DNA from: a virus | UHGV virus genome: UHGV-0075672 | Direction: 5' to 3' (one strand) | Length of the DNA stretch: 22,142 nucleotides | Shown here: piece by piece, positions 18,001-21,000 of the stretch | Layout of the letters: every line of letters begins with the position of its first letter | Position numbering within the stretch: position 1 is the stretch's first letter | Program-made: the position numbers

Positions 18001-21000
18001 GCTCGTTACCATCGGCAGAACGGGTTCAGGATTGGGTTTGTGAAGTTGTCCTCCCAGCCCTGATGGAGACAGGAACTTACAGCCTTAAACAGGAGAAAAG
18101 TACACCATCAAACGGCCTTCCTGAATACCGCAAAGCTAAAGCGCTGAAAATGGAAATGGAGGTTATCTCAAGCGTTCTGGATCGTTTACCGCACCTGGGC
18201 GACAAGGCGAAACAGGCTGCTTACGCCTCAGTGATTAACCGTTCTGCTGGTTTTAATGTTATCCCCCTTCCTGTTCTTGATGAACATCACTACAGTGCAA
18301 CAGAGGTTGGTAAACAGTTTGGCGTCACTGCAAACAAGATCGGTCGCATTGCCAATACCTACATGCTCAAAACAGAACAATACGGGAAATGGTTCATCGA
18401 CAAATCCCCGTATTCGGATAAGCAGGTAGAAAGCTTTCGATACAATAATCGGGGAGTACGGAAGATTGAAGAAATCCTGGAGGCGGAGAACAAAGCAGAG
18501 TTCGGAACCTGATATCCTCCACTCTCCGACGCCGCCAGAATGACGGCGCGGTGGTTAAGCATGAGGCGAAATTTCTGCCGGGCGGTATTTTGTTGAGAGA
18601 TGAGATACGTCAACTTCTCTTTCCGCTTTTTCGAGGCTCCATGCCGTCTGGAGACGAATCCATGAAGACGGAGTTCCACCCAGGACAGCAGCGAGACGAA
18701 CAGCCATTTCAGGAGATATTGTCGCATTACCTGAAACCAGTCGCTGAACAGTGGAAGGCGCGACATCAAGCGCTCTTGCCAGTTCCCTGATTCCAATATT
18801 CTGATCTTCCAGAATATCAGCAATAATTTCTCCGGGATGAGGGGGATTAAACATCGTCATTTAGTGGTAATCAAACATTTATGGCCTGAATCCCGTTTTT
18901 TTCAATAACGGAAAGAAGTCGCAGGGCGGGACCACCAGGGCGTTTCACTCCGCGTTCCCAGTCAGATATCAGGTTTTTACTGACATTCATATATCTGGCA
19001 AAGACGGGTTGTGACAGATGTTCACGCTCACGGAGTGCCCGGATTCTTTCAGGAGACATTGAAGGTGCTGGTTGCAGGCAGAGTTCATCGAATTCTCGCA
19101 TAGTCTGTTTCGTTACTGCGCCGATATCATGAAGCGATTCCATCATTTCATGTACGGATGCAAGCGCATCACTGCGGTAATTTTTACTCATTGGGTACCT
19201 CCGTAAACTGACCCTGTAGAATCAGTTGTGCCAGTTGTTCATCTGTTAGATTGAGTACGTGAGGTGCAGCCTTCCGAAATGTGCTTTCCTCAGTAGCGGT
19301 TATATTTTCACGTTCATTTTTTGCGTATGCATATACGAAAAAGGCCCTTGTGCCGACGCGATAGAAAATGATTGTGCGATAACCGCCAGATTTGCCGCCA
19401 CCGACTCGTGGCAGACGTTGCTTGATAACGCCGTTACCCAGGTTTGCTGAGATAAGCCCGTTATCAGCCTGTTTAACAATTTCGCGCAGTGACTGGTCGG
19501 ATATTTTGTTTTTGCGTGCAAATCGCTCAAACCAGGCGTTTTTAAAAATGCGCATTTTTTGTTCCGTTATTAATGTATAACACATAGTATTACATTGCGT
19601 AGGGATCTGCAATGCCATCAGTTTGACAACGTCGCGTATCCGGGATTATATTCTCCGCACGCCAGCAAAATCTGGCGTCGGGATTGAGACCCCGGATATT
19701 CAACCGCGACAGACACACGCCGCGAGCGTGTTTTTTATTGTCGTATGCACACGCACATCTGAATTATGGTGGGGCGTATGGGGCAGCCGAAAGGCTGGCC
19801 GGTTGGTTGATCCGGTAGTCTCAACCCTGTACGTCTCGCCACCCGATGATTGAGACCTGACGGTGGTGAATGAAAAACTCATCAACCGGAGGTGTCACTA
19901 TGACAACTCAAATCTCTGTTGAAACTCTTGCTGCGATTACTCACAACCAAACCCCTGTAATTACCACTGAGTTGTTGGCGCATCTTTATGGTGCGGACGT
20001 TAAGAATATTCAAAACAACTTTGCAAGGAATGTAGGACGCTTTCAGATTGGAAAGCACTTTTTTAAGATCGAAGGTGAAGAGTTACGTGAATTGAAGCAC
20101 AGACCATCTTTAAGTGGGTCTGTGAAAATCGCCCGTAACGTTCGTTCCCTCATCCTCTGGACAGAACGCGGCGCTGCCCGTCATGCAAAAATGCTCGAAA
20201 CCGATCGGGCGTGGGAGGTGTTCGAAAAACTGGAAGACTGCTATTTCAGTCAAAAAATCCCAGAACAACTTCAGCTTCCAGAATCAACGCTATCTATCAA
20301 CTACCCTCTATCGTGGTTTTCAGAGCATCACCCCTACTCCATGATGAGCTATGTTGATCGAAAAACTCTTAACCTGGACGTTTCCGTGCTCTTCGATATG
20401 CCAAGCCCAACTATGCGCATCCTCAACGAGCTACACAGCAAGGGCTATAACGTTGACGCCGCTGTTGCTGAATTTAACGCCTTCAAACATCTGACGGAAG
20501 AAATGCGCCGTACTCTACAGGATATTTCAAGACTGTCAGATCGAAATTCCCGAAAAGGCTTCTCGTTAAGCCTCTGACTTCCCCACCCCGACATCCCGTC
20601 GGGGTTTTCATATCTGGAGACAAAAATTTGAAACAGATCGCTTTCTACAGGCGTTCTGGAAGGCCCGGTGTCTTCCGTGGGTTAAAAGAACGCGTCACCT
20701 GGATGATTCAGTCTCGTGGTCGTCCTGTTACTGGCAGTGAAATAGCAGAGAAATTTGGTGTTTCACTTTGCGAGTTCAACAAGGTAGCTCGCAGCCTGAC
20801 AAAAGGCAGTAAGGTTGTGAAAATCAAGGCTTCAGAGTCATTCACCACAGACACCGGAATCGTTGATCGCTTTTTCTCCCTCGAATCAAATCCTCGTCGT
20901 GACACACCTCGTTCACGCAATGCCGTTCCTCCATTCAGTCGCAGAAGCCGTGAACACGCAGCAAAAAACTGCCGCGAGGAATACGAGCAAAAGGCCAAAC

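Follow-up and report, generated by a model that had tools for sequence, protein, structure and literature searches.

The three minus-strand genes examined here form, in our best reading, a mosaic of two unrelated type II toxin-antitoxin (TA) modules in an exchangeable prophage slot, with the third gene, an orphan higA, as a co-transcribed passenger. We put the probability of this reading at roughly 0.85. The window, meaning the whole stretch of DNA that was analyzed, comprises 22,142 nucleotides of the virus genome UHGV-0075672. ORF reading of the window gave three ORFs on the minus strand at the same coordinates that a sequence-only reading of this DNA had reported, and RefSeq calls the same genes in an E. 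coli locus with 100% identity. The features discussed below are as follows.

19184..19555, minus strand: toxin gene (gene 1), 123 aa; PF06296 RelE-type, HigB2-like; predicted ribosome-dependent mRNA endonuclease
18871..19191, minus strand: antitoxin gene (gene 2), 106 aa; HTH_3 at residues 50-94; HigA2-type
18555..18860, minus strand: orphan higA (gene 3), 101 aa; TIGR02607; canonical HigA/VapI-type
18861..18872, minus strand: higB stub, 12 nt, GATTACCACTAA, read as GAT TAC CAC TAA (D-Y-H-stop); directly before higA
19577..19593, no strand: palindromic operator GTAATAC-TAT-GTGTTAT; predicted HigA2-type antitoxin dimer site, overlapping the -10 region
19584..19612, minus strand: putative operon promoter; -35 TTGCAG (19607-19612), 17-nt spacer, -10 TACTAT (19584-19589)
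18530..18552, no strand: hairpin element ACCGCGCCGTCATTCTGGCGGCG; 3' end of the cassette slot, in the gap where the higA and Bro-N genes converge

Genes 1 and 2 share 8 nt, ATGAGTAA (19184-19191), and a spacer of 10 nt (18861-18870) leads from gene 2 to gene 3. Both the overlap and the gap had been described before, and both were read directly in the sequence. A prophage of E. coli SCU-104 matches about 1.5 kb around the three genes with 100% identity; RefSeq makes the same three gene calls there, naming a RelE/ParE family toxin, a helix-turn-helix (HTH) protein and a HigA family antitoxin. SCU-104 is not the strain of the window, since an intact restriction-modification pair distinguishes the left part of the window. 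The surroundings are those of the early-left region of a lambdoid, Stx-phage-like prophage, with a Bro-N gene on one side and an ORF6N antirepressor-like gene on the other. Related phages and genomes have the same slot in the same backbone with different cargo, and this exchangeable slot is flanked by the Bro-N gene and by the antirepressor control region (isrK/C4/ORF6N). An identical copy of the 23-nt hairpin (18530-18552) is found directly 3' of the HigA2-type antitoxin gene in the two-gene locus of strain 2013C-3033, and the hairpin appears to mark the fixed downstream boundary of the slot. It has no T-run after it, and the terminator scan made no terminator call there. In a search of the plasmid collection the isrK/C4 backbone alone gave matches; the TA genes were absent from plasmids.

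Gene 1 matched PF06296 over the full length of the model (positions 1-120), scoring 157.5 bits against a cut-off of 27 (E 2e-46). Its best PDB sequence match was V. cholerae HigB-2. In that alignment R47, R60, Y77 and K79 of gene 1 pair with R51, R64, Y82 and K84 of HigB2, which are the catalytic residues of the V. cholerae toxin (PMC5416850). The AlphaFold model of gene 1 had a pLDDT of 87.8, and when it was compared with the PDB using Foldseek, the top ten hits were all V. cholerae HigB2 (probability 0.97-1.0, TM 0.46-0.61). R47 and R60 are invariant and K79 is nearly invariant in the toxin family alignment, and gene 1 has all of the family-invariant residues. The label "HigB-2-like" is fair because HigB2 itself passes the PF06296 threshold, at 34.5 bits for a query sequence verified over residues 41-95. 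By homology to HigB2, gene 1 most likely encodes a RelE-fold, ribosome-dependent mRNA endonuclease.

The HTH_3 domain of gene 2 was matched with an E value of 2e-7, and the best PDB match was HigA-2 (E 1.3e-7, residues 44-99). About 43 N-terminal residues without a recognized domain are followed by a C-terminal HTH-XRE domain, which is the architecture of HigA2, and the PDB sequence search detected no sequence similarity between the N-terminal segment of gene 2 and that of HigA2. We surveyed 80 loci from other species by means of a toxin-homologue alignment, of which 71 included 400 nt or more past the antitoxin. A homologue of gene 2 came after the toxin in every one of these other-species loci that had enough downstream DNA, with E values of 1e-13 to 1e-59, nearly all below 1e-33. 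None of the 71 longer loci had a same-strand HigA-type ORF or any other recurrent third ORF after the pair; the single HigA-like match in the survey was on the opposite strand. The toxin-antitoxin pair is the conserved unit. We regard gene 2 as shown, at the level of sequence comparison, to be the cognate antitoxin partner of gene 1.

Gene 3 belongs elsewhere. It matched TIGR02607 with 88.4 bits against a cut-off of 47.7 (E 2e-25), and it matched PDB 2ICP, the HigA of E. coli CFT073, with an E value of 8e-28; Proteus HigA was also close. HigA proteins of the TIGR02607 family usually pair with a PF05015 HigB toxin and not with one of PF06296. The classes assigned to the three proteins in the sequence-only reading (HigB2-like toxin, HigA2-like antitoxin and HigA/VapI-type HTH protein) were borne out by the HMM and PDB searches and, for the toxin, by predicted structure as well. 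PHROGs places the toxin and the antitoxin in families with no assigned function and HigA under "plasmid antitoxin with HTH domain", which adds nothing to the Pfam and NCBIfam assignments. The PADLOC defence models gave generic HTH similarities only and no defence system.

The history of gene 3 can be read from the few bases in front of it. Phage GER2 carries, in the same place, an intact higB (PF05015)-higA pair whose HigA is 99% identical to gene 3 and whose two genes overlap by one base. The 3' end of GER2 higB reads ...TACGAGGATTACCACTAA (TAC GAG GAT TAC CAC TAA), which encodes YEDYH*. Of a PF05015 higB upstream of gene 3, the window retains only the last 12 nt, and the first two bases of this stub also form the last two of the gene 2 stop codon, TGA. 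By chance 0.00 copies of this 12-mer are expected in the window; there is one. Alignment placed the join at a GAT that is common to both parental sequences. This join cut away the GAGGA Shine-Dalgarno sequence that precedes higA in GER2. On these comparisons, gene 3 is not a component of the gene 1-gene 2 pair.

No promoter-like site was found upstream of gene 3 in the consensus scan. The palindrome of GER2-type higBA loci, GTTGCGCATTAC, had three two-mismatch matches in the window against 2.09 expected, and none of them was near the locus. Because these matches are not above chance, there is no sign of a local GER2-type operator for the orphan HigA. Between the three genes the scan detected neither a terminator-like nor a promoter-like site, which makes it plausible that gene 3 is co-transcribed with genes 1 and 2.

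Upstream of the toxin gene, the palindrome at 19577-19593 has arms of 7 bp and a spacer of 3 bp and covers -10-like hexamers. We took the 57 other-species toxin homologues whose upstream regions could be anchored at the toxin start and scored them for the motif TMAYAC-N3-GTRTKA with up to two substitutions. The motif was present in 56 of the 57 regions, compared with 3.8% of shuffled sequences. Across the homologues its consensus is RTMAYAC-N3-GTRTKAY, usually 33-50 nt upstream of the toxin start (median position -40), and alignment showed that the core is kept in the two-gene E. coli variant. We predict that the 19577-19593 palindrome is the binding site of the gene 2 dimer. The promoter assignment is itself an inference, because the site is too weak for the consensus scan, which returned nothing on the minus strand; it rests on manual reading and on the position of the operator. 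In V. cholerae higBA2, a single inverted-repeat operator extending from after the -35 over the -10 has been shown experimentally (PMC11006873), and the placement of promoter and operator in the window mirrors that arrangement (PMC11006873).

The sequence-only reading had pointed to a different inverted repeat in this region, AATGTA-N13-TACATT. It is present, at 19572-19577 and 19591-19596, but as an operator it is in the wrong register, overlapping the conserved palindrome and lying one register away from it. The same 141 nt are AT-rich and contain six inverted repeats with arms of at least 6 nt, so by itself the repeat does not stand out. Its right outer arm reads CACATC in the closest two-gene relative. 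We rejected this repeat as the operator on the grounds that an outer arm is changed in the nearest relative while the offset core palindrome is conserved family-wide.

We counted both modules in 5426 complete E. coli genomes. Of these, 217 have the two-gene PF06296 cassette, always on the chromosome, and in 214 of the 217 no higA adjoins it. This higA allele occurs in 68 genomes, beside higB in 22 and without higB in 46. The three-gene layout of the window was found in just 3 of the 5426. Among the matches listed, the other higB-less genomes all share one different breakpoint that leaves a higB stub of 22-23 nt. This breakpoint is that of PA2/VT2phi272-type phages, and the upstream cargo is a ParD-like gene plus a small lipoprotein. 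We considered a ParE-like toxin in that cargo and rejected it: the 70/90-aa ORF has a lipobox and encodes a small lipoprotein. Because the breakpoints differ, higB was lost at least twice independently while higA was kept.

The three-gene form was found in none of 50,697 phage records. The exact HigA protein of the window is, however, listed in 574 blocks of an assembly collection, and all nine contexts of this allele that we read (9/9) show the same three genes with differing ORF6N neighbours. Given the 574 blocks and the constancy of the three genes in the contexts read, the three-gene mosaic is a successful lineage and not a one-off. As a counterpoint to the passenger view, circulation of the three-gene form beside differing ORF6N neighbours is compatible with some selected use. 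The orphan higA is full length in 46 of 46 phage records and its ORF is intact in all nine contexts of the exact allele, but these copies are 98-99% identical, so there are too few substitutions for their intactness to say much about selection.

We propose the following origin for the locus. A canonical higB (PF05015)-higA pair like that of GER2 would have been the ancestral occupant of the slot. A complete HigB2/HigA2-type cassette, consisting of promoter, operator, PF06296 toxin and HTH antitoxin, would then have replaced higB and the higB promoter. One crossover probably fell within the backbone shared on the isrK side. Collinearity of the window with the two-gene loci (2013C-3033 and O104:H4 strains) extends into this conserved backbone, which is also present in GER2. 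Because this backbone is common to all three, ordinary homologous recombination can explain that end. The other crossover would have been an illegitimate join at the GAT microhomology, 12 nt before the end of higB. Such an exchange would leave higA intact but without toxin, promoter or ribosome-binding site. We infer the direction of the event, insertion into higBA, from the stubs and the frequencies. The sequence-only reading had named, as the finding that would count against it, a third gene that was the fused remnant of a decayed, separate higBA pair. This is essentially what the locus contains, except that gene 3 is an intact survivor and not a fused remnant.

By homology with the HigB2/HigA2 literature, the N-terminal segment of the antitoxin would wrap around and inactivate the toxin. 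Its C-terminal HTH domain, as a dimer, would bind the 19577-19593 palindrome over the -10 and repress the operon. Loss of the labile antitoxin would free the toxin, and the outcome, again by homology, could be prophage stabilization or abortive infection. Translation of the orphan higA would be weak at best, through re-initiation 10 nt past the antitoxin stop, and the gene would have no role in controlling the PF06296 toxin.

A different view of the third gene accepts the mosaic origin but gives the leftover HigA a present-day function, in which it is kept as a useful anti-addiction or anti-defence factor. HigA made from the HigA2-controlled promoter would neutralize the PF05015 HigB of GER2-like phages, plasmids or the host. 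Several observations are consistent with this: the orphan higA is full length both in the 46 phage records and in the 46 higB-less E. coli genomes, higA was retained each of the at least two times that higB was lost, the same host species harbours circulating relatives that have both HigB and a 99% identical HigA, and the three-gene form is widespread in draft assemblies. The same idea has been raised, as unverified, for the orphan ParD and HigA of EHEC phages (PMC12502783). However, keeping an antitoxin after losing its toxin is the neutral expectation, the reverse order being lethal, and the near-identical copies carry no purifying-selection signal. In addition, higA in the window has neither a Shine-Dalgarno sequence nor a promoter, and no defence system was matched by the PADLOC models. 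We consider a retained function of this kind unlikely. That the orphan HigA has been co-opted specifically as an immunity factor against the PF05015 HigB of competing Stx-like phages, plasmids and hosts seems to us quite improbable; HigA would then be read through from the HigA2-controlled promoter and would shield the lysogen, or the phage as it infects. Among classic antitoxins, no verified example of service as an anti-addiction or anti-defence gene is known (PMC12502783).

The co-orientation and tight spacing of the genes, the lack of a terminator-like site between them and the stability of the layout across several prophage backgrounds would also suit a genuine three-component system, in which HigA acts as a second antitoxin or as an extra transcriptional regulator of the PF06296 module. 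This would be comparable to paaR2-paaA2-parE2 or to toxin-antitoxin-chaperone systems, and TA operons of three components do exist in E. coli prophages (PMC8630535). The comparative evidence argues the other way. A same-strand HigA-type gene follows the pair in 0 of the 71 other-species loci, 214 of the 217 E. coli cassette genomes hold just two genes at that place, and the HigA in question is 99% identical to the partner of a toxin from a different family, PF05015. The pair's own operator is conserved family-wide and fits the HTH antitoxin of the pair, and PADLOC matched no system here either. The dedicated three-gene system suggested by the sequence-only reading is not supported, given that a stub of a PF05015 toxin gene stands in place between HigA and the pair and that other taxa have no HigA third gene; we hold it to be extremely unlikely. 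It is also very unlikely that the whole locus is inert cargo, with an inactive toxin or an operon that is silent in the lysogen. A poor -35 element and the lack of any minus-strand promoter in the consensus scan might be expected of such a state, but the family-invariant residues and all four equivalents of the HigB2 catalytic residues are present, and conservation of the operator, of both ORFs and of the overlap between toxin and antitoxin genes extends to hundreds of E. coli genomes and many phyla. We therefore retain the mosaic of two modules as the preferred explanation.

Both modules are members of well-known families and were already correctly annotated by RefSeq, and the orphan HigA of Stx phages has already been noted in print (PMC12502783). 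What is new is the derivation of the orphan from a higBA pair by way of the stub, the counts of the different architectures and the family-wide operator consensus. For the orphan HigA of Stx2a/EHEC phages, this provides sequence evidence of descent from an intact higBA pair that was orphaned at least twice, with different breakpoints. The operator consensus for the PF06296/HigA2 type could guide studies of regulation. The slot from Bro-N to isrK/C4/ORF6N is a recurrent site of TA-cargo exchange in lambdoid prophages of pathogenic E. coli. If the immunity reading were true, phages would be gathering classic antitoxins in this slot by the antirepressor region, for use as anti-addiction or anti-defence genes. 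The locus also has corrective value. Three adjacent TA-like genes do not make a tripartite system if one of them was left behind when a cassette was swapped, a history that can still be read here in a 12-nt stub.

Among known systems, the first two genes most resemble V. cholerae HigB2-HigA2 (PDB 5JA8, 5JAA, 8A0X). In both, the toxin gene comes first and the antitoxin gene lies downstream, and the antitoxin has an N-terminal segment, which is the neutralizing one in HigA2, ahead of a C-terminal HTH-XRE domain. HigB2 belongs to the PF06296 family, as gene 1 does, is the best match to gene 1 by both sequence and fold, and shares the catalytic Arg, Arg, Tyr and Lys. A single palindromic operator over the -10 is also common to the two (PMC11006873). 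The differences are that gene 1 and HigB2 are only about 20-25% identical, that the operator of the window has 7-bp arms and a 3-bp spacer whereas the V. cholerae operator is a different sequence, TGTACGC-N5-GCGTACA, and that the module of the window is in a prophage whereas HigB2-HigA2 is in a superintegron.

Gene 3 is a full-length member of the canonical HigB-HigA family, represented by the Rts1/Proteus vulgaris system (PDB 4MCX), CFT073 (PDB 2ICP) and GER2 higBA. Unlike those systems, it has no PF05015 partner, promoter or Shine-Dalgarno sequence, and 12 nt of higB are left. The Stx2a phages PA2, VT2phi_272 and phi346/phi349 (PMC12502783) resemble the window in having this higA allele (98% identity) without higB, in the same slot beside the Bro-N/antirepressor gene and on the same backbone, including the isrK/C4 region. 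They differ in their 22-23-nt higB stub and in their cargo, which is toxin-free and consists of a ParD-like gene and a small lipoprotein. Finally, paaR2-paaA2-parE2 of E. coli O157:H7 CP-933P is, like the locus described here, a prophage operon with a toxin, an antitoxin and a separate HTH protein (PMC8630535). In that system the HTH regulator comes first and represses both the operon and the immunity region of the prophage, and the antitoxin lacks a DNA-binding domain (PMC8630535). In the window, by contrast, the antitoxin has an HTH domain and an operator of its own, and the extra HTH gene is, in the mosaic reading, the relic of another module.

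The cargo slot that holds the toxin–antitoxin locus is filled differently in Stx2a prophages of the PA2 and VT2phi_272 types (loci L003 and L095), where it occupies the following positions:

L003 3050–3633: slot cargo
L095 1912–2495: slot cargo

At both loci, a ParD-like antitoxin gene (PF03693) is followed by a gene for a lipoprotein of 70–90 aa with the lipobox MATSGC, and then by the orphan higA, which is accompanied by a higB stub of 22–23 nt. No ParE accompanies the ParD-like antitoxin in the slot at either locus. With ParD lacking ParE and higA also an orphan, two orphan antitoxins thus share a single slot, a pairing of ParD and HigA previously remarked on in phi346/phi349 (PMC12502783).

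Among the loci from other species, only that of Thiorhodococcus drewsii (L030) has a HigA-like ORF close to the PF06296 pair:

L030 3466–3723, minus strand: HigA-like ORF

Since it lies on the strand opposite to the pair and approximately 280 nt downstream, this ORF is probably part of a separate module.

On the downstream side of the slot lies a short hairpin:

18530–18552: 23-nt hairpin, ACCGCGCCGTCATTCTGGCGGCG, in the gap between higA and the convergent Bro-N gene

Strain 2013C-3033, which has a two-gene locus here, carries the same hairpin immediately 3′ of the HigA2-type gene. The hairpin thus looks like an invariant edge of the cargo slot.

Several other elements were located in the same prophage:

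396–570, minus strand: sok antisense RNA match (118 bits)
within 6738–9157, plus strand: intact Eco57I-like methyltransferase, 489 aa
within 6738–9157, plus strand: intact BsuBI/PstI-family restriction endonuclease, 317 aa
10532–10620, plus strand: sRNA-Xcc1 (Rfam family) match, 65.9 bits

The sok match adjoins a gene annotated as Hok/Gef in E. coli strain SCU-104, with the Q antiterminator close by, which indicates that the prophage also has a type I toxin–antitoxin locus. The methyltransferase–endonuclease pair adjoins the cI-like repressor gene. The endonuclease is intact in the window, whereas just a fragment of it is left at the corresponding place in SCU-104, so the window's genome is related but different. 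The sRNA-Xcc1 match either overlaps the 5′ end of a gene for a Rha-family regulator or lies slightly upstream of it.

Back-to-back with the toxin–antitoxin promoter, and divergent from it, lies an antirepressor control region (19623–19869, plus strand), followed by its ORF6N gene:

19623–19652, plus strand: predicted strong sigma-70 promoter (TTGACA-18-TATATT)
19659–19736, plus strand: isrK sRNA match (73.6 bits)
19715–19731, plus strand: terminator-like hairpin within the isrK match
19762–19846, plus strand: C4 antisense RNA match (70.6 bits)
19870–20577, plus strand: ORF6N gene, 3′ of the promoter and both RNA matches

This isrK/C4 backbone is common to all cargo variants of the slot, and small Salmonella plasmids carry part of it too. 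The control region is similar in arrangement to isrK-anrP of Gifsy-1 and to immI of P1 (PMC4825925).
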